In this document: positions 8,165 to 47,385 of the stretch, in pieces
Numbering within the stretch: the stretch's first letter is position 1
Layout of the letters: every line of letters begins with the position of its first letter
Source: Patescibacteria group bacterium
GTDB lineage: Bacteria; Patescibacteriota; Patescibacteriia; UBA9934; GWF2-40-263
DNA: 64,000 bases
Assembly: GCA_041661745.1 (NCBI GenBank)
Contig: JBAZTR010000003.1
Coordinates: forward strand, 11,965 to 75,964
Reading direction: 5' to 3'
Notes under the pieces: generated by a model
What the model saw: the letters and a program-made list of their open reading frames with translations, nothing else
Database searches by the model: none
What the model was told of the DNA's origin: nothing
Made by a program: the position numbers and the translations under genes

Positions 8165-9284
8165 TTATGTGTCTTTATTTTCTTTGGCCCAACGATCGGA
8201 ATCGCCCAAAAGCTTTCTTAAATAAGCTTCAATGAATTGATCAATTTCGCCATTCAAAATTCCTTGCGTATCGGCTGTTTCAAAATCAGTCCGATGATCT
8301 TTAACCAACTGATACGGCTGAAGAACATAACTTCTGATTTGATTGCCCCATTCGGCACTCTTGAATTCCCCGCGCAGTTTCTTTTTCTCGGCCGCCAATT
8401 CCTGTTCTTGTTTATGAAAAAGTTTGGAAGCCAAAATCTTCATGGCCGTTTCCTTATTCTGTTGTTGACTGCGTTCGTTTTGGCATTGCACGGTAATGTT
8501 GGTGGGAATATGAACAATGCGCACGGCCGAATAAGTGGTGTTAACCGACTGACCACCCTTCCCGCCCGACATAAAAGTATCAATGCGCAAATCTTTAGGA
8601 TCAATGGCAACCGCGGAAATTTCTTCGAGTTCGGGAATCACCTCAATTAAAGCAAAGGAGGTGTGACGCATTTTTTCCGCGTCAAAAGGCGAGATACGCA
8701 CCAAACGATGGACACCGGCTTCGGATTTCAAATAACCAAAAGCGTAACGGCCGGCCACGCGAAAAGTCACGGATTTAAAACCAGCTTCCTCACCGCGCGA
8801 TTCCCACAAAACATCAACGGAAAAATTTTTCTTTTCGGCAAAACGTGTCAACATCCTAAACAGCATCTCGGCCCAATCCATTGCCTCGGTTCCCCCGGCT
8901 CCGGCGTGAATGGAAACAATGGCGTTGCTGGTATCGTGCTCACTGCAAAATAAAACAGTAAACTCCAACGCGGAAAATTTCTTTTCAATATCGATCAACT
9001 TATTCTGAATTTCATCACGCAAATTTTCGTCACCTAATTCAACCAAATCTTTGAGCTCGACTAATTCTTTTTTTATTCCCTCCCAAACTTCAAGTTCAGT
9101 CCGCAAATCAGCCGCCTTTTTGGAAACCTGTTTAGCCTTATCCTGATTAGACCAAAAATCCGAAGAGGCCATTTCGGCCTCTAGTGCTTTGACCTCAATT
9201 TTTACCCGATCAAGGTCAAAGTAACCCCCAAGTCGCGACCACGCGTGCCTGGAGGCTCTCAATTTTATTTAATAAATCTTTCAT
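8165..9284 (-). CDS. prfB: Peptide chain release factor 2 with programmed +1 ribosomal frameshift
   Basis: GGQ motif (SGGKGGQSVNTT). True ATG at 9284 gives MKDLLNKIESLQARVVATWGLL, then in-frame TGA within CTT TGA C (9215-9221) preceded by an internal GGGGG SD mimic. The +1 frame continues DLDRVKIEVKALEAEM. The ORF-track TTG start at 9262 is an artefact of the shift. Confidence 0.85.
9215..9230 (-). promoter_or_regulatory. RF2 autoregulatory +1 frameshift site (TGG GGG TTA CTT TGA C)
   Basis: Same architecture as the E. coli prfB site AGG GGG TAT CTT TGA C. Confidence 0.8.
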
Positions 9285-9287
9285 AAG

Positions 9288-9327
9288 GGCTGGAGAAGCT
9301 TGAGAGGCCGGAAAGGCTAGAAAGGCC
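9288..9327. repeat. Tandem about 9-bp repeat array (GAGAAGCTT GAGAGGCC GGAAAGGCT AGAAAGGCC), left arm of the inverted pair around the IVS-protein gene
   Basis: Purine-rich units on the plus strand. The mirror array is at 9704-9746. Confidence 0.7.
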
Positions 9328-9718
9328 TTATTTCGGTCCCAATTTTTTTGATGAATCTAAACAGCAAGAAATCCGTCTGTGTCCTCAGGTCTTCAAGATA
9401 TTCATATTCAGTATCGTTTAGGTACCCTAAGTCTTTCGAAAGTTTCAAGAAAAACTGACATTCCCACAAAGACCCTTTGGCTATATTAAGAAAACGTAAA
9501 AAATCTTTATCCGACGGCTTGGCACGACCCTCAACAATATTGGCTGAAACAGATACCGCGGCTCGGCGTAATTGACTTACAATTCCGTATTTCTCTTCGT
9601 TTGGAAAAAACTTGGTCAGTCTATAAACTTCGATGACAAATTCATAACTCTTTTGCCAAGCCAAAATATTTTGATATGGCTTATTTGTAATAATTCCATC
9701 CATAAGCCTCTCAGGCAT
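9317..9718 (-). CDS. Four-helix-bundle protein of the 23S rRNA intervening-sequence (IVS) protein family (Avd-like fold)
   Basis: Family signature KYGIVSQLRRAAVSVSANIVEG. Both termini (MPERLM.. and ..RPF) are encoded by the flanking repeat units. An alternative start is the second Met at 9703. Confidence 0.75.
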   Translation of the reverse strand: MPERLMDGIITNKPYQNILAWQKSYEFVIEVYRLTKFFPNEEKYGIVSQLRRAAVSVSANIVEGRAKPSDKDFLRFLNIAKGSLWECQFFLKLSKDLGYLNDTEYEYLEDLRTQTDFLLFRFIKKIGTEIRPF

Positions 9719-9746
9719 TTCAGGCCTTTCCAGCCTTTCAAGCCCT
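9704..9746. repeat. Tandem about 9-bp repeat array (TCAGGCATT TCAGGCCTT TCCAGCCTT TCAAGCCCT), right arm and inverted copy of 9288-9327
   Basis: Pyrimidine-rich units on the plus strand, i.e. the reverse complement of the left array. Confidence 0.7.
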
Positions 9747-10074
9747 ACAACTTAATCTGCTTGGCATACCTACCCAAAACCGGAATCTCCCATTCCTCAC
9801 CATTAAGAGCATGAACAATTCCAAGAATAACCAACACCAACAAAATTATCGAGCCCAACATCCAAACCAACTGACCAAGAATCGGCACAATGTTGCAAAC
9901 CCAAAGCACCAACCAAGCAATAAAAAGGACTAATCCCTGTTTACCGTGAAATTGGCAATAAGCACTGTCTTTTTTGGCCAATAATGGGACAAGGCAAAGC
10001 AGCCCCAGATACCCAACAGCGGCAACCAATTTGTTTTCATCAATATCCTTAGTGTTACGTGGTGTTTTTTCCAT
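9745..10074 (-). CDS. Small integral membrane protein (DUF4870-like)
   Basis: 109 aa with two hydrophobic segments; GYLGLLCLVPLL...KDSAYCQFHGKQGLVLFIAW pattern. Confidence 0.45.
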   Translation of the reverse strand: MEKTPRNTKDIDENKLVAAVGYLGLLCLVPLLAKKDSAYCQFHGKQGLVLFIAWLVLWVCNIVPILGQLVWMLGSIILLVLVILGIVHALNGEEWEIPVLGRYAKQIKL

Positions 10075-10092
10075 AATAATTTCAATTAATTT

Positions 10093-10742
10093 TTACTGCT
10101 TAATTCTAACAAATTGACGAAGATTTTCAAGAGCTAAATTCGCCGTCTCCTTACCGCTGACATGAATGGCTCGGCCACCCAGGCCAGCGAAAAAATTACA
10201 CGTGTTCAAAGAATCATCAATTAAAAAAGAGTCATGAATCGGCACACCAAACTCGCGCAAAGCTGCCAAAAAAGACTCCCCGTCTTTTTCTGTTTTCAAA
10301 TATCCCAAGTCGGAAGAAACAACGATTTTATCAAAAACTTCGTCGAGTTTTAATGCCGGTACGGTAAAACGAGTGAAACAATCCATATTCCCGGTAACCA
10401 AAACAACATAAGCCGAGGAACGAAGTTTATAAATAGCTTCTCTCAAGGCGTTATCTAAGACCATAGTACAACCAAGGCGTTATCTAAGACCATAGTACAA
10501 CAGGTCGCGGTAAAATCTTGCCACAACAGGTCGTATGGCAAACCGGTCCATTCGGCAACCAAACTATTTATCTCCTCTGAAGAATATTGCCCGCGCATCC
10601 AGTCGTCATGCAAGGCTGGTCCATCACCAAAAATTTTTTCGTGGGCAACTTTCATTTCATCCTGGTCACGCAGACGACGCCAAAATTTATCACAACAAAG
10701 GGTACCGGACCAGTCGACAAAAATGACGAATTTCTTATCCAT
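10093..10742 (-). pseudogene. HAD-superfamily hydrolase gene disrupted by a 29-bp tandem duplication (split into ORFs 10455-10742 and 10093-10464)
   Basis: The N-terminal ORF has FVDWSGTL (HAD motif I-like) and ends ..CCTMVLDNALVVLWS*. The C-terminal ORF restarts MVLDNALREAIYKL... The peptide MVLDNAL is encoded twice by the duplicated 29-mer. Confidence 0.65.
10444..10501. repeat. Exact 29-bp direct tandem duplication CAAGGCGTTATCTAAGACCATAGTACAAC x2
   Basis: Copy 1 is 10444-10472 and copy 2 is 10473-10501. 29 is not a multiple of 3, so it frameshifts the HAD gene. Confidence 0.9.
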
Positions 10743-10781: not shown

Positions 10782-10884
10782 GGTTATTAAATACCAATGA
10801 ATATTGACCGCCTGGTCGAAACCTGCTAAATTAAACGGCCGACTGAAACACGATTGCCGCCCAGTTAGGCGGATTGGAGGAATT

Positions 10885-11430
10885 ATGGTCGGACGCAAAC
10901 ATTCCAAGACCGAGCTCGCCATCCTCGCCGGGATGCTGGTCTGCATCATCATCGGCGTGACCACCGCAGTGTGGTCTGGTGAGAAGTCCGCGCCGACTGT
11001 CCAGGATTTCCCGCCCGTCGGCAAGTACGGCATGCTCCTCTGTGTGCCGCAGGGCGGCAAGGAGGGCGATACCCTCGAGATCTACCTTGCCAACTCCACC
11101 CTGATGAACTGCCAGCCCACCCAGCCGAGCCGCATACTCGTTCTCCGGCCCGAGGGAGACAAGGGGATGTGCGGCAGGGTCGACGCCTGCCTCAACCCCG
11201 GCACTGCCACCGAGATCAAGGTGATGGGGCCGCCGCCGTTCGGACAGGTTGATCTCTGGTCGTACTGGGCGAAGACCCGGGACGGCTCGGGGTCCGAAGT
11301 GCGAGGCGAGGGACGGATCATCCTCAAGGCCGAGAACGACTTCAGCGCCGTGGTGCTGGTCGTGTCCCGGCTCGCGACCTATGGGCTCATGATAGAACGG
11401 CCCGATTCCGTGGGGCCGCTCGCCAAGTGA
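10885..11430 (+). CDS. Hypothetical membrane-anchored protein encoded in a high-GC island
   Basis: GGAGG 6 nt before ATG 10885. 181 aa with N-terminal TM helix (LAILAGMLVCIIIGVTTAVW). GC3-rich codons. Own terminator follows. The antisense ORFs are compositional artefacts. Confidence 0.5.
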   Translation: MVGRKHSKTELAILAGMLVCIIIGVTTAVWSGEKSAPTVQDFPPVGKYGMLLCVPQGGKEGDTLEIYLANSTLMNCQPTQPSRILVLRPEGDKGMCGRVDACLNPGTATEIKVMGPPPFGQVDLWSYWAKTRDGSGSEVRGEGRIILKAENDFSAVVLVVSRLATYGLMIERPDSVGPLAK

Positions 11431-11440
11431 GCGCGGCTTC

Positions 11441-11474
11441 CTCATGTCCTGTTCGTGGAAACGACAGGACTTTT
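11441..11474 (+). terminator. Intrinsic terminator after the island-1 ORF (GTCCTGTTCG tggaaa CGACAGGAC TTTTTTATTT)
   Basis: Hairpin followed by a T-run. Confidence 0.5.
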
Positions 11475-17795: not shown

Positions 17796-17802
17796 AATAT
17801 TT

Positions 17803-17908
17803 AGCTTGTAGCTGGTAGGAGGTAGCTGGTAGGTCAGGATCTATTTTAGAGTCCGCCTACAAGGCCAGCTAAGCTGGCCAAGCTACAAGCTACTTCCTAC
17901 AAGCTGTA
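17803..17908. repeat. Inverted pair of CTAC-periodic repeats (17803-17835 and 17884-17908) forming a long imperfect hairpin in the nusA 5' leader
   Basis: AGCTTGTAG at 17803 is the exact complement of CTACAAGCT at 17889. Same family as 11517-11548. Confidence 0.6.
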
Positions 17909-27240: not shown

Positions 27241-27387
27241 AATACCAACCCCTGACAAAAACCTTAACGCCCTATAATGCCCGAACGCCGCCTAGCCAAC
27301 CACTTCCCTTGACCTTATCCGCCTGGGCGGGTAATATAACTCCTTAACCATTCCTTCCCCATGCTTAAGGGTTAATACAAAAACTAG

Positions 27388-27419
27388 TCTCCTAGGCTCC
27401 TAGCTTCCTACCCTCCTAA
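27388..27419. repeat. 8-nt periodic pyrimidine repeat TCTCCTAG GCTCCTAG CTTCCTAC CCTCCTAA in the nrnA leader
   Basis: Contains CCTCCT (anti-SD-like) instead of an SD. Confidence 0.5.
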
Positions 27420-27430
27420 TCAAAAAAAGC

Positions 27431-28561
27431 ATGGTCTCCGAAACCCCAAAACAAATATTTGAAGCAATCCGCCGCAGTTCGGCGCCACTTTTAGTTTTGC
27501 CGCGCGGGGCCGGAGCCGATGGTTACGCCAGTGCTGTTGGTTTTTATAAATTGATTGAAGGTATGGGTAAACCGGTCGAAATGGTGGCGGCCGACGGTGT
27601 CACTCCAATCAACCTTGGTTTCCTGCCCGGCATGGAAAAAATAAAACCAGCTGTCGAAAACTTGCGCCAACTGATGATAGAGCTAGACACTAGCCAAACA
27701 CATGTTCAAGATATGCGCCACGAGGAAAAAGACGGACGGCTTTCTATTTCTTTCACCCCACATCAGGGTGGATGGAGTGAAAAAGATGTTCGAATTTCTC
27801 ATTCCGCTTATCGTCATGATTTGATTATTTGTTTCGGAGCGTCTGATCTTGAAGCTTGCGCCCACCTTTATCATGACCATAAAGATTTCTTCTTTCGCAC
27901 CCCAATCATTAATATTGATCACTCACCTGACAATGAACATTTTGGCCAAATCAACCATGTCGACCTGACCGCTTCGGCTATTGGTGAAGCCTGCTTTGAA
28001 CTAGTTCACTCAATCAACCCAACCCTTATCAACGAGGAAATCGCCACGGCTTTTTTAACCGGCATGATTGCCAAAACTCGTAGTTTCCGTACTCCACATT
28101 TAACCCCGAAAACCTTGGAAGTGGCCGGAAAACTAATGTCCCTCGGTGCTCGTCGCCAAGATATTGTCCGTAATTTATTCCAAACTCGTTCCGTTCAAAC
28201 TCTGCGCTTGTGGGGCCGCGCCCTGGCTCGATTAAAATCTGATCCCGAAGCAAAAATCGTTTGGACAATGCTTTCCCAGCAAGATTTCTTACACGCCGGA
28301 GCCCGTGAGGAAGATTTACCTGATGTGATTGATGAATTAATTTCCAATTCGCCGGAGGCAAAAATCATTGTTCTACTCTACGAAAATCATGCCCGTCATA
28401 TTTGTGGCATTATCCGCGCCGAGCCACCACACGATGCCCGTCGGCTAGCTGAATTATTTTCGGCGGTCGGAACCAGGGGAGAGGTTCATGTTTGCCTGGA
28501 GAAAAAAACAATCGTTGAGGCCGAGAAAGAAATTATTGAAGCAATTAAAAAACTGGTTTAA
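27431..28561 (+). CDS. nrnA: DHH-family phosphoesterase, NrnA-like (nanoRNase/pAp phosphatase)
   Basis: DHH motif NIDHSPDNEHFG; DHHA1-type C-terminal region. Confidence 0.75.
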   Translation: MVSETPKQIFEAIRRSSAPLLVLPRGAGADGYASAVGFYKLIEGMGKPVEMVAADGVTPINLGFLPGMEKIKPAVENLRQLMIELDTSQTHVQDMRHEEKDGRLSISFTPHQGGWSEKDVRISHSAYRHDLIICFGASDLEACAHLYHDHKDFFFRTPIINIDHSPDNEHFGQINHVDLTASAIGEACFELVHSINPTLINEEIATAFLTGMIAKTRSFRTPHLTPKTLEVAGKLMSLGARRQDIVRNLFQTRSVQTLRLWGRALARLKSDPEAKIVWTMLSQQDFLHAGAREEDLPDVIDELISNSPEAKIIVLLYENHARHICGIIRAEPPHDARRLAELFSAVGTRGEVHVCLEKKTIVEAEKEIIEAIKKLV

Positions 28562-44222: not shown

Positions 44223-47111
44223 TTAAACCTTAATAAAACCAACGGTTATATCGCACTCGTTAAGACGAAAGGCCTCACAAATTTCCGGGCGTTCGCCAGT
44301 TGTACGGAGATTGTTGGCTAAAGTGCCAACACGAATCGTCTCCCCATATTCTTCAATCATTTTCTGAGCCTCGACTTCAGCACTTTCGAAATAAATTTCA
44401 ATGCGATCTTCGATGGTCAATTTATTATTCTTACGCATTTCGTTAATGCGACGAACCAGGTCGCGAGCCATGCCTTCACGAAGCAATTCTGGCGTAAGAT
44501 TAACATCGAGCTCAACGTTGTACTCGCCTTTTTCAACAATCACGGCTTTTACATTAACTTCGTCTTTAATGATTTCAATAAGTTCGGCATCCAACTCCCC
44601 TTCTGGCAACCATACAGTGGCTGAAGCGAGTGGTTGGCGCACCGGTCGGCCGGTTTCAGCCCGGGCTTCCAAAATTTTGGAAACGACTGAACGAGCACGA
44701 GCCATGCGCTCCAAAAGTTTTTCATCAATTAATGCGACGTCAGCCGTCGGCCAATCATCAAGATGAACCGAAGCCTTGCCCCCTTGAAGTCGCAAGTAAA
44801 TAGCGTCAGACAAAAACGGAGTAAACGGGGCCATGAGTTTGGTAATGCCAAGCAAACATTCACGCAAGGTGAAAATAGCCGCGGCTTTGTCAGCTTCGTC
44901 CGATCCTTTAAAGCGATCGCGACTGCGGCGGACAAACCAGGTTGAAAGATCATTGATAAAATCAGCAATGGCCCGTACCGGTTCGGTCACTTTATAATTT
45001 TCCAACTGTTCGGTTGAATCTTTTATTAATTGATTCAGGCGAGATAGAACCCAACGATCCAAAACATTTTCCTTCTCTTTTTCTCCCTTTATTTCCCTTT
45101 CCTTCCCTTCATAGAGTTCGTAAAAAGTCATGATGTTCCAAAGGATCATGAAAACTTTCTTAATCATTTCATCGAGCGATTTCAAATCAAACCGTTTGGA
45201 ATCACCAGGCTGATTAATGGAATACATGTACCAGCGCACGGAATCAGCTCCGTATTTATTTATGGTCTCGACCGGATCAACAACGTTGCCGATGGACTTA
45301 GACATTTTCTTTCCTTGAGCATCAAGAACGTGTCCCAAACAAATGACATTTTTGTAAGGACGTTCTTTGCCAAGCAAGGTGGCCACAGCGAGCAGAGTGT
45401 AAAACCAACCGCGGGTTTGATCGATAGCCTCGGAAATATAATCAGCCGGATAGGCTGTCGCTTGCCCCTCGGAGCCCGGCGAAGTGGGGTCGATCTTTTC
45501 TTTATTCTCGAAAGGATAATGCCATTGAGCGAAAGGCATACAACCGGAATCAAACCATACGTCGCAGACTTCCGGGATGCGTTTCATTTGTTCGCCACAG
45601 CTGTCGCATTTAATCAAAACATCATCAACAAAAGGACGATGCGGATCAAACGGCTCGGCCATAGGTGTGACTGCCTTGGCTTTCAATTCTTCAAAACTTC
45701 CAATGCAAGTTTTTTGGCCGCAGGAACAGGTCCAAATCGGCAGTGGTGTACCCCAGTAACGCTCACGGGAAAAGGCCCAGTCCTTAACTTCACGCAGCCA
45801 TTCACCAAAACGACCTTCCTTAATATAATCAGGCTCCCAATGAATGTTTTCGTTTCCTTCAATCAGTTTATCGCGCAAAGAACTCATTTTGATATACCAA
45901 GAAAACTTGGCCAGATAGAGGAGCGGGGCTTTGCAACGCCAACAGAAAGGATAGGTATGACGATAAGTTTCTTCTTTATATAACAAACCGCGATCCAATA
46001 AATCTTTTTTAATATCTTCGTCGGCCTTTTTCATGAACTTACCAAAGCCCGGTGACTTTTCCGAACTAACCATGCCGGTTTGATCAACAGTAAAAATAAC
46101 TGGCAATTTTTCCGCGTCACCTAAACGTGAGTCATCCTCACCATAAGCCGGAGCAATATGAACAATTCCCGAACCATCGGTCGTGGAAACGAAATCAGCG
46201 GTGTAAACTTTGTAAGCTTTTTCTTTTTCTCGTCCGGGGGTGTCGTAATAGGTTTCGTAGAGCGGAACATATTTCATTCCAACCAATTCTGATCCGTTTT
46301 TCTCCCACACGGTTTCAAAAGATTCACTAACTTTTCCAAGTAGTCCGCTGGCTAAAATAAATTTTTCACCATTAGCCAACTTAATCTGTGAATATGAAAT
46401 ATTTTCACCAATAGCCAAAGCTACGTTACTCGGCAAGGTCCACGGAGTGGTGGTCCAAACTAAAAAGTAGCTATTCTCTTCCCCTTCAATTTTAAACTTA
46501 ATGTAAACCGACTGGTCATCGACCTCTTTGTATCCTTGAGCCAACTCGTGTGAAGACAAAGTTGTTACACAACGTGGACAATGTGGCACGACTTTATAAT
46601 CTTGATACAAAAGATCCTTGTCCCAAATCTGTTTAATGATCCACCACAACGACTCGACGTATTCGGAATGATAAGTGACGTACGGTTTGTCGAGGTCAAG
46701 CCAGAAAGCGATGCGCTTGGTAATTTTTTGCCAATCCTCAAGATACTTCCAAACACTTTCGCGACATTTTTTGTTGAATGGTTCAATGCCAAAATTTTCA
46801 ATGTCTTTCTTACCGGAAAAACCAAGTTGCTTTTCAACTTCAATTTCCACCGGCAAACCATGGGTGTCCCAGCCAGCCTTGCGATCGACTAAATACCCTT
46901 GCATGGTGCGGAAACGCAAAAGGCAATCTTTAAAAGCGCGCGACTCGACGTGGTGAATGCCGGGTTTACCATTGGCAGTAGGAGGCCCTTCAAAAAAAAC
47001 AAAACGGCCTTTGGGGGCAGCCTTGGCCAGGGTTTGTTCAAAAATCTTTTCTTTCTCCCAGTTTTCCAGGAGTTGTTCCTCGATTTGAGGAAAATTTGGT
47101 CTATCGGACAT
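44223..47111 (-). CDS. ileS: Isoleucine--tRNA ligase
   Basis: PPTANGKPGIHHV (HIGH region), KMSKSIGN, editing domain. 962 aa. Confidence 0.95.
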   Translation of the reverse strand: MSDRPNFPQIEEQLLENWEKEKIFEQTLAKAAPKGRFVFFEGPPTANGKPGIHHVESRAFKDCLLRFRTMQGYLVDRKAGWDTHGLPVEIEVEKQLGFSGKKDIENFGIEPFNKKCRESVWKYLEDWQKITKRIAFWLDLDKPYVTYHSEYVESLWWIIKQIWDKDLLYQDYKVVPHCPRCVTTLSSHELAQGYKEVDDQSVYIKFKIEGEENSYFLVWTTTPWTLPSNVALAIGENISYSQIKLANGEKFILASGLLGKVSESFETVWEKNGSELVGMKYVPLYETYYDTPGREKEKAYKVYTADFVSTTDGSGIVHIAPAYGEDDSRLGDAEKLPVIFTVDQTGMVSSEKSPGFGKFMKKADEDIKKDLLDRGLLYKEETYRHTYPFCWRCKAPLLYLAKFSWYIKMSSLRDKLIEGNENIHWEPDYIKEGRFGEWLREVKDWAFSRERYWGTPLPIWTCSCGQKTCIGSFEELKAKAVTPMAEPFDPHRPFVDDVLIKCDSCGEQMKRIPEVCDVWFDSGCMPFAQWHYPFENKEKIDPTSPGSEGQATAYPADYISEAIDQTRGWFYTLLAVATLLGKERPYKNVICLGHVLDAQGKKMSKSIGNVVDPVETINKYGADSVRWYMYSINQPGDSKRFDLKSLDEMIKKVFMILWNIMTFYELYEGKEREIKGEKEKENVLDRWVLSRLNQLIKDSTEQLENYKVTEPVRAIADFINDLSTWFVRRSRDRFKGSDEADKAAAIFTLRECLLGITKLMAPFTPFLSDAIYLRLQGGKASVHLDDWPTADVALIDEKLLERMARARSVVSKILEARAETGRPVRQPLASATVWLPEGELDAELIEIIKDEVNVKAVIVEKGEYNVELDVNLTPELLREGMARDLVRRINEMRKNNKLTIEDRIEIYFESAEVEAQKMIEEYGETIRVGTLANNLRTTGERPEICEAFRLNECDITVGFIKV

Positions 47112-47218
47112 ATTGTGTTAGGGAAAGGGAGTTAAAGGGAAAGAAAGGGAGGGAACGGGAGGGAAAGAAGATAAAATTTCCTTCTCTTTAATTCCCTTTT
47201 CATCTCTTTCCTTCTCTT
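47112..47218. repeat. Polypurine (GGGAAAGGGAGTTAAAGGGAAAGAAAGGGAGGGAACGGGAGGGAAAGAAG) / polypyrimidine (TTCCTTCTCTTTAATTCCCTTTTCATCTCTTTCCTTCTCTTC) mirror repeat in the ileS leader
   Basis: Seen directly in the sequence. Potential long imperfect hairpin or H-DNA. No T-box motifs seen. Confidence 0.6.
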
Positions 47219-47385
47219 CTAAAAACTGGGCAAATAATAACATTTATAGGCAAAAATGACAAATTTGTGAGATAAAAAACCGCGTGGCCGTGAAGCCATG
47301 CGGGAGGGGAGGGTGGATGCGAGAGTGTCCAAGGTCCAAGGAACCAAGAGCCATGCCAAGGGCAGAGGGCCAAAGAATCCCAGGG

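Follow-up and report, generated by a model that had tools for sequence, protein, structure and literature searches.

A PF05635 gene between inverted tandem-repeat arrays in the DUF4870-prfB spacer of a Patescibacteria genome: a probable mRNA-borne relative of the 23S rRNA intervening sequences

Background

Intervening sequences (IVSs) of 23S rRNA, as found in Leptospira and Coxiella, carry an open reading frame (ORF) in the loop of a stem formed by their terminal inverted repeats (TIRs), and the role of the encoded protein as well as the origin and movement of these elements have lacked an explanation since about 1990. The IVS of Coxiella burnetii is 428 nt long, contains the S23p ORF, is closed by a 28-bp terminal inverted-repeat stem at which RNase III cuts were mapped by rapid amplification of cDNA ends, and on the immediate 5' side of the ORF carries the heptamer GACAGAT in two to three tandem copies, a number that varies between strains (PMC4990558). 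Here we analyze a unit of the same architecture in a 64,000-nt stretch of a Patescibacteria group bacterium (GCA_041661745.1, contig JBAZTR010000003.1, positions 11,965 to 75,964; hereafter the window). The unit lies between a DUF4870 gene and prfB and consists of a gene for a four-helix-bundle protein from family PF05635 (the cargo) flanked by inverted arrays of tandem 9-mers (the arms). It is probably an IVS-type cassette residing in mRNA rather than in rRNA, that is, a promoter-less PF05635 gene between inverted tandem arrays.

A first-pass annotation of the window, made from its letters alone, had likened the unit to rRNA IVSs, and the parts do correspond to those of the Coxiella element, the only relative with an ORF to have been studied by experiment (PMC4990558). 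Both encode a member of the same protein family, both place the ORF in the loop of a TIR stem (28 bp in Coxiella, about 35 bp in the window), and both have purine-rich tandem repeats directly 5' of the ORF, heptamers in Coxiella and 9-mers here, within a total length of 428 and about 460 nt, respectively. They differ in location, as the 23S IVS sits in helix 45 or 25 of the rRNA whereas the window unit occupies an operon spacer, and in the state of the gene, which is decaying and apparently untranslated in Coxiella but under strong purifying selection in the window. RNase III excision is proven for Coxiella and would by analogy extend to the window unit.

RNase III stems that bracket cistrons are also known from the 16S and 23S stems of rRNA operons and from the early mRNA of phage T7. 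These share with the window unit a long-range pairing around a functional unit within a polycistronic transcript, whereas the window unit differs in being an optional, mobile-looking cassette with a stem made of tandem repeats. Foldback elements and MITEs (miniature inverted-repeat transposable elements), for example Drosophila FB, have terminal inverted repeats composed of short tandem units. The cassettes described below resemble them in their tandem-unit TIRs, their presence or absence as a block and their ORF-less derivatives sharing arm units, but they have no transposase or consistent target-site duplication, keep a fixed orientation relative to host transcription and show a purine/pyrimidine asymmetry between the arms. 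Tandem heptamers are further known from the STRR repeats of cyanobacteria. From Beggiatoaceae, cyanobacteria and Bacteroidetes, direct repeats of a heptamer (TAACTGA) that precede start codons have been reported (PMC4679880); like the arms, they place tandem 7-9-nt units directly before start codons in the same phyla, and two arrays discussed below (orthologous locus L085 and window positions 27384-27418) look like them, but they are direct repeats without a paired inverted array or cargo gene, and no link to PF05635 is reported there.

Results and discussion

A PF05635 gene between complementary arrays

The DUF4870 gene, the cargo gene and prfB are all encoded on the minus strand, and the order of transcription is DUF4870, 5' array, cargo gene, 3' array and prfB. 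The features of the locus are:

10103-10130, minus strand: promoter-like site TTGAAA-16-TAGAAT with TG, upstream of DUF4870, a match to the consensus only
9745-10074, minus strand: DUF4870 gene (PF09685; profile match E 1.1e-8), upstream of the unit and co-oriented
9704-9746, minus strand: 5' arm, about 4.6 tandem 9-mers, purine-rich on the coding strand: GGGCTTGAA AGGCTGGAA AGGCCTGAA ATGCCTGAG AGGCTT
9317-9703, minus strand: cargo gene, 128-aa four-helix-bundle protein, PF05635 / TIGR02436
9285-9329, minus strand: 3' arm, reverse-complement array, pyrimidine-rich on the coding strand: AAGGCCTTTCTAGCCTTTCCGGCCTCTCAAGCTTCTCCAGCCCTT
8165-9284, minus strand: prfB (release factor RF2; PCRF and RF-1 domains), ATG at 9284-9282, downstream of the unit and co-oriented

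Both arrays have a period of 9 in Tandem Repeats Finder, with 2.6 copies at 9305-9327 and 4.6 copies at 9704-9744, and together they form an inverted repeat (9286-9326 / 9706-9746) of 41 nt with 76% complementarity, which contains sub-alignments of 31 nt (84%) and 23 nt (87%). The inverted 9-mer arrays and TIRs of about 35 bp noted in the first-pass annotation are thus real, and its expectation that the arms would fold together holds as well: as RNA they form a 35-bp duplex of -50.9 kcal/mol, compared with -22.8 +/- 3.9 for shuffled arms (0 of 200 shuffles as good), and in the minimum-free-energy fold of the 491-nt minus-strand RNA the arms are paired around the ORF (z -2.6). Dinucleotide-shuffle z-scores of duplexes understate low-complexity arms such as these (window z -2.6), and alignment-based tests with ORF controls were therefore used for the wider survey. 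A two-unit 9-mer pattern had seven matches in the window, all at the locus, where 0.38 were expected and none of 100 shuffles reached seven, and no second copy of the cargo gene or of the 9-mers was found in the window. Rfam gave no match at the locus or at 20 other cassette loci; since its window matches are tRNAs only and the unit lies between DUF4870 and prfB, this unit is not inside a 23S rRNA gene.

The spacer is filled exactly by the unit, because the 5' arm begins within the DUF4870 stop TAG (9745-9747), at the base of the stem, and the cargo gene ends within the 3' arm. The 5' arm reaches from this stop codon to the cargo ATG; the 3' arm includes the last four cargo codons and the TAG stop (9317-9319) and ends 2 nt before the prfB ATG. 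The neighbour's stop and the prfB ATG had been described as abutting the repeats, which is correct apart from the prfB ATG lying one base lower than implied. The further claim that the repeats encode both ends of the ORF stands for its end but probably not for its beginning. An upstream ATG at 9718 would give a protein of 133 aa, while the database gene call P0001 has 128 aa and is 100% identical; the start is likely the second ATG, at 9703, as in the orthologues and in P0001, so the 'MPERL' codons within the 5' arm are probably untranslated. There is no Shine-Dalgarno (SD) motif between the 3' arm and the prfB ATG, and the hexamer CTTATG is present twice, at the junction of the 5' arm with the cargo ATG and at that of the 3' arm with the prfB ATG. 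Frame 0 of prfB reads MKDLLNKIESLQARVVATWGLL* and terminates at TGA 9218-9216 within the classic CTT TGA C site of programmed +1 frameshifting.

The cargo protein is a bona fide member of PF05635/TIGR02436, in agreement with the earlier assignment to the IVS family. The ORF at 9317-9718 matches Pfam 23S_rRNA_IVP (PF05635) with E 2e-35 and 121.7 bits (cut-off 33.8) and TIGR02436 'four helix bundle protein' with E 2.3e-35 and 121.1 bits (cut-off 24). By sequence similarity the nearest solved structure is 2GSC/XCC0516 (E 8.9e-24), which we take to be a four-helix bundle assembling into a pentameric ring, and 2RLD is also similar. The family motif (G)xxRxxxSxxxNxxE (PMC3936711) appears here, in the form RxxxSxxxNxxE, as R47-A-A-V-S51-V-S-A-N55-I-V-E58, and the same columns are invariant in our protein alignment. 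Among six orthologues the ratio of nonsynonymous to synonymous substitution rates is 0.06-0.18, at saturated synonymous divergence (dS at least 1), so the cargo is a selected, functional gene, unlike the decaying Coxiella ORF; it evolves about as slowly as prfB.

The homology of this fold family to the Avd proteins of diversity-generating retroelements (DGRs) had also been pointed out. The window protein is a weak Avd match (NF033474, 25.8 bits with a cut-off of 80), no reverse transcriptase and no template or variable repeats lie near the cassette, and there were no phage matches, so a DGR was rejected. No RVT family is listed among the neighbours in the orthologous loci, and some relatives have faint matches to PF22296 (bAvd). 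We know of no Avd genes bracketed by inverted tandem arrays. A known anti-phage defence system was rejected as well, as PADLOC had no family match at E <= 0.01.

An old resident of the locus in Candidatus Uhrbacteria

The closest protein homologues come from Candidatus Uhrbacteria, in which the order DUF4870-cargo-prfB is kept in five further genomes or contigs (loci L001, L002/L003, L004, L165 and L166), giving six loci with the window. Each of these orthologous loci has purine-rich tandem 9-mers before the cargo gene and a complementary array after it, a few nucleotides before the prfB ATG. The arm duplexes of all six measure 28-39 bp with -41 to -67 kcal/mol (z -5 to -11; 0 of 200 shuffles as good). 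The unit theme RGGCYKGAA is common to five of the six loci. In the sixth, L004, the units GGAGGCAAC/GTTGCCTCC replace GAAAGGCY/RGCCTTTC, and the array GGCACCAGA GGCAACGGA GGCAAC pairs at 26 of 27 positions with GTTGCCTCC GATGCCTCT GGTGCC, which indicates that complementarity is kept while the sequence changes. When all arms were cross-paired there was no discrimination among the five close orthologues, which share a unit consensus; the diverged copies L004, L009, L167 and L011 each pair best with their own partner.

The two loci closest to the window by prfB identity, L085 (88%) and L086 (84% over 169 aa), lack the cargo gene, while prfB of the filled loci is 80-82% and that of more distant DUF4870 loci about 60% identical. 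The first-pass annotation had suggested looking for related genomes with an empty site; such genomes exist, and both have repeats at the site. In L085 all that is left is an orthologous purine array, GGGGATGAA GGGGTGGAA GGGGATTAA GAGGACGAA GGGATTTT, fused to the prfB ATG, a state that a simple deletion between the two CTTATG copies seen in the window would produce. L086 has at the same site an ORF-less hairpin of about 100 nt with arms of tandem 9-mers (xxxxTGATT / AATCAxxxx). In the outgroups L093, L095 and L108 there is no IVP match; the spacer comparison covers the first two, in which prfB directly follows DUF4870, and in L108 the genes are 1.3 kb apart. The simplest history would be one gain in the ancestor of the clade, vertical inheritance and deletion in the nearest relatives. 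Judged from these comparisons the window copy is an old resident and not a recent insertion, because it is syntenic in six Uhrbacteria genomes, slow-evolving and lost in the two nearest relatives.

Two further kinds of repeat unit were observed in this group. An ORF-less hairpin with the core AATCAAGGTTYAGACA and arms of xxxxTGATT / AATCAxxxx 9-mers is dispersed among the loci (L086 390-484, L004 5560-5650, L001 5650-5674 and L002 1898-1960), at three intergenic sites directly before the start codons of prfB, an epimerase gene and a gene of 200 aa; half-elements also occur, the behaviour is MITE-like, and the hairpin is absent from the window. Paralogous cassettes are found on the metagenome contigs L167 and L168 (JGI sample 3300014208). 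That of L167 directly follows an RNase J gene and has the arms GGGCTGCAA... / ...TGCAGCCC, followed by a terminator-like hairpin; that of L168 follows a long gene without a recorded Pfam family and has a 5' array, no recognisable 3' arm and an ORF of 149 aa.

Inverted arms as a property of the PF05635 family

To extend the comparison to the family, one genome per species was searched with the homologue alignment, which yielded 80 PF05635 loci from phyla that include the candidate phyla radiation (CPR), Bacteroidota, Cyanobacteriota, Acidobacteriota, Planctomycetota, Verrucomicrobiota, Chloroflexota and Desulfobacterota. The upstream flank of each gene was aligned to the reverse complement of its downstream flank, a z above 4 being taken as significant, and ORFs of the same loci that are not adjacent to a cassette served as controls. 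Significant inverted arms were present at 57 of the 80 PF05635 loci (71%) compared with 8 of 177 control ORFs (4.5%). Several ORFs next to a cassette were positive as well, with the opposite polarity, because adjacent cassettes or ORF-less hairpins share units. The gene-in-hairpin architecture is thus a property of the PF05635 family, found at about 70% of the homologous genes in many phyla.

The armed loci share several traits with the window. Periodicity is clear in 48 of the 57, with a period of 7 in 24 loci, 8 in 10 and 9 in 9. Units read from the flanks include GGTGACT x7 / AGTCACC (a Saprospirales genome), CAGGAGT x4 / ACTCCTG (Nostocales), GGAGTTCA / TGAACTCC (Phocaeicola, Prevotella) and GGGAGTAAA (a Solibacteraceae genome). 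In 54 of the 57, purines predominate on the coding strand of the 5' arm (mean 69%), and neighbours are co-oriented downstream in 50/57 and upstream in 51/54 cases. In many loci the 3' arm overlaps the end of the ORF, and the median distance from the end of the arm to the following start codon is 14 nt.

Block-wise gain and loss in Nostocales plasmids

Filled and empty versions of the same site were found in a plasmid collection, in which the gene is present on 34 plasmids, mostly of Nostocales. Plasmid C of Trichormus variabilis ATCC 29413 carries a cassette within a conjugation operon, and seven plasmids, including pCC7120beta of Nostoc PCC 7120, have both flanks at 97.4-97.9% identity without about 430 bp. 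The empty state reads ...AAAAGTAAT followed by TAACAAATAATT ATG, a 13-nt spacer with no array. The filled state reads ...AAAAGTAAT, AAATCAGAATTCAGAAGTCAGAATTCAGGAGTCAGAATAA ATG, the cargo, ...TGACTCCTGAGTTCTTCTTT, GTAAT and TAACAAATAAAT ATG. The insert has heptamer TIRs of about 38 bp (30/38 matching) that extend to both of its ends, and GTAAT is a 5-bp duplication observed in this single case. Since the empty site has no array, the arrays arrive with the gene and did not pre-exist, and for Nostocales we reject the idea that the gene fell into a hairpin or array already in place.

Other plasmids extend this picture. Nostoc C052 pE has at the same site a deletion derivative in which the 5' array and roughly the first 110 nt of the cargo gene run directly into the downstream ATG, in parallel to L085. 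The cassette DNA (419 nt with arms, 82% identical) recurs in N. punctiforme pNPUN02, Aulosira and Scytonema, where the flanks are unrelated. In a second filled and empty pair (pNPUN02 and pNsp_b) the insertion is bounded by a stop codon on one side and a 3-nt spacer on the other. The flanks of the third pair, N. edaphicum pNe_5 and pNsp_c, are 96.9% identical; where pNe_5 has its cassette, pNsp_c has a version of about 260 nt that lacks the ORF and shares the GGGAAC/GTTCCC units. In a fourth pair (Aulosira and Fremyella) the cassette lies inside the 3' end of the upstream ORF and provides its stop codon. At the level of the family these comparisons support gain and loss of the cassette as a block, with decay to an ORF-less hairpin or a single array. 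The suggestion of a compact mobile module made in the first-pass annotation is therefore upheld for the family through the Nostocales sites, and not in the sense of a recent insertion for the window copy.

These comparisons bear on whether the repeats are instead a generic intergenic feature, such as slippage-prone leaders or stabiliser hairpins, that flanks an ordinary chromosomal gene by chance. Repeats without the protein do occur in the window, as gene-free hairpins or arrays before nusA (17796-17905), ileS (47115-47222) and the gene at 27431, the prfB leader of L085 is a lone purine array, and heptamer direct repeats precede start codons in Beggiatoaceae, cyanobacteria and Bacteroidetes (PMC4679880). 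The first-pass annotation had named repeats before many unrelated genes without the protein as a refutation, a condition to which these window and L085 repeats come part of the way. We nevertheless regard chance flanking as highly improbable, given inverted arms at 71% of PF05635 genes but 4.5% of control ORFs, arrays that appear and vanish with the gene at sites that are array-free when empty, and 9-mers whose exact sequences are confined to this locus within the 64 kb. The cyanobacterial comparisons suggest that the gene-free arrays and hairpins arose by decay of cassettes and are not a generic leader that the gene happened to enter.

The same data raise the question of whether the unit acts at the level of DNA only, the arms being the TIRs of a foldback- or MITE-like element moved by an enzyme encoded elsewhere, with RNA pairing as a by-product and the protein as an accessory mobility factor. 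This would account for the presence or absence of blocks, for TIRs that extend to the insert ends with one 5-bp direct repeat, for the same cassette with conserved terminal repeats at unrelated Nostocales sites, for ORF-less derivatives with the same units and for the AATCAAGGTTYAGACA hairpin dispersed over three intergenic sites in related Uhrbacteria. Several copies with terminal repeats in common, together with insertion polymorphism, are seen in the Nostocales plasmids, whereas the arms are unique in the 64-kb window. Target-site duplication is not consistent, the arms of paralogous Uhrbacteria copies differ in sequence, unlike the sites of one transposase, and the window copy has been immobile over 20% protein divergence. 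The purine-rich 5' arm in 54 of 57 loci and the co-orientation of neighbours moreover indicate a constraint on the transcript. We therefore consider a purely DNA-level element quite unlikely.

Proposed processing and translation of the transcript

DUF4870, the cassette and prfB are predicted to be co-transcribed. The promoter-like site at 10103-10130 is the only one near the unit, although the count of such sites in general is not above that in shuffled sequence, and a consensus scan found no promoter-like or terminator-like site in the cassette flanks, a pattern that agrees, as weak evidence, with co-transcription. In the joint transcript the arms would pair into a stem of about 35 bp that loops out the cargo ORF and brings the DUF4870 stop beside the prfB start. 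RNase III would cut this stem, as it does in the Coxiella 23S IVS, and the cleavage would free the cargo mRNA and separate the flanking cistrons. Such removal at the RNA level would make an insertion tolerable in essential transcripts, both rRNA and operons. If left uncut and unopened by ribosomes, the stem would cover the regions in which translation of the cargo gene and of prfB starts. No RNase III gene was present among the 10 mid-size window ORFs tested. Taken together, we favour the view that the unit is a copy of a mobile IVS-type cassette that is old and has been inherited vertically, and that this copy is looped out of the mRNA and probably cut from it by RNase III.

Several results weigh against this view. 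The window stem is interrupted every 2-9 bp by a mismatch or bulge, 23 of the 80 homologues have no arms by the arm test, and the other repeat hairpins of the window use units different from those of the cassette. Transition mismatches in the arms show a weak excess of the G.U type (60, versus 42 of the A.C type), a hint of selection on RNA that is too slight to settle the matter, so that complementarity could also be a matter of DNA, for example of template switching between quasi-palindromic arms. Target-site duplications are missing in the second and fourth Nostocales pairs and not enriched in a scan of the 57 armed loci, the boundaries of which are imprecise, and there is no transposase or reverse transcriptase in or adjoining the cassette. 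The case for RNase III cleavage at the DUF4870-prfB locus is an argument from analogy.

The masking of start regions could also be the purpose of the stem in itself. In this explanation the unit is a device for translational switching or coupling, in which the stem hides the cargo and prfB starts until ribosomes that end at the DUF4870 or cargo stop melt it, and RNase III is dispensable. The anatomy of the locus is favourable to this: the DUF4870 TAG and the prfB ATG are a few nucleotides apart at the base of the stem and the cargo stop is inside the 3' arm, so terminating ribosomes would open the stem; in many other loci the 3' arm overlaps the ORF end, and the gap between the arm and the following start has a median of 14 nt. 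The purine-rich leader of prfB is moreover absent in the filled loci and present in the empty L085. A version in which tandem SD motifs (GAAAGG/GAGAGG) are sequestered by anti-SD units (CCTTTC) was set aside except as a weak element of the translational explanation, as SD use is undetectable among the 59 ATG-start genes of the window (7/59 versus a background of 8.5%). The explanation as a whole leaves the block-wise gain and loss unaccounted for, as well as the same architecture in rRNA, where there is no translation across the stem (PMC4990558). We find it unlikely as a full account; as a second function of the stem it is compatible with, and not exclusive of, an IVS-type cassette that is excised from mRNA.

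Wider significance

If units of this kind are common in the operon spacers of CPR, Bacteroidota, cyanobacteria, Acidobacteriota, Planctomycetota and other bacteria, rRNA is not their defining home. A broader proposal is that PF05635 cassettes are widespread minimal mobile elements, of which the 23S IVSs are the subset that landed in rRNA, and that they spread through an RNA intermediate: RNase III would excise the RNA, the protein would recruit a reverse transcriptase encoded in trans in the manner of Avd, and the excised RNA would be copied into new transcribed spacers. We put this forward as a speculative and very doubtful extension. In the full-text literature searched, with subscription-only papers outside its scope, non-rRNA IVP genes flanked by inverted tandem arrays were nowhere described, and neither was insertion polymorphism of such genes.

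Cassettes of this type may change how the mRNAs of essential genes, prfB among them, are processed and translated, and some of the enigmatic heptamer arrays between genes may originate from them. Cassettes would also explain the recurrent association of PF05635 genes with unrelated systems, which bears on prediction of function through guilt by association. IVP genes inside cas operons have been noted (PMC3936711), and in our survey the type I-D CRISPR-Cas locus on pANA02 of Anabaena sp. 90 (L177; NC_019429 43146-45818) has a four-helix-bundle gene placed between its cas6 and cas4. The reported associations between 23S_rRNA_IVP and CRISPR (PMC3936711, PMC10910872) may thus reflect the insertion of cassettes into operons, or arrays mistaken for CRISPR-like repeats. 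Cultivable carriers include Nostoc punctiforme (NPUN_RS35280) and Trichormus variabilis (AVA_RS28115), and isogenic-like empty sites are available in Nostoc PCC 7120.

Other repeats and features of the window

The window contains three further repeat structures directly before start codons. An ORF-less hairpin of inverted 7-mers (TAGCTGG... / ...CAAGCTA) at 17796-17905 separates a UPF0102/YraN-like gene from nusA and stops 7 nt short of the nusA ATG; it folds with -48.2 kcal/mol (z -5.0), has the 5'-purine / 3'-pyrimidine polarity of the cassette arms and may be a cassette remnant. At 47115-47222, 11 nt before the ileS ATG, is a homopurine/homopyrimidine 10-mer hairpin (GAAAGGGAGA x4.5, then TTTCCWTCTC x4.2; fold z -1.4), and a similar 10-mer repeat, purine on the coding strand, lies about 2 kb downstream inside the ileS coding region (45073-45109). 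The third is a lone pyrimidine-rich 8-mer array (CTAGYCTC x4.4) at 27384-27418, 12 nt before the ATG of the plus-strand gene at 27431, which has no inverted partner and resembles a lone 3' arm.

Beyond DUF4870 and prfB, the neighbourhood of the unit includes a HAD-like hydrolase gene and groEL. The former is split into the overlapping ORFs 10455-10742 and 10093-10464 by a perfect 29-bp tandem duplication at 10444-10501 (CAAGGCGTTATCTAAGACCATAGTACAAC x2), which represents either a recent frameshifting event that created a pseudogene or an assembly artefact. Between this gene and groEL is a GC-rich island (approximately 10800-11450; 62-67% GC against about 42% around it) with long overlapping ORFs on both strands (208 aa on the plus, 204 aa on the minus strand) and no Pfam match. 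The island may have been acquired as foreign DNA, result from a chimeric join or be a non-coding element. Finally, a TATAAT-like box is present about 10 nt ahead of the ATG in many window genes (for example 5735, 40550, 44104, 48264 and 57028), which, along with the lack of SD enrichment described above, suggests that leaderless mRNAs or mRNAs with very short leaders are widespread in this Uhrbacterium.

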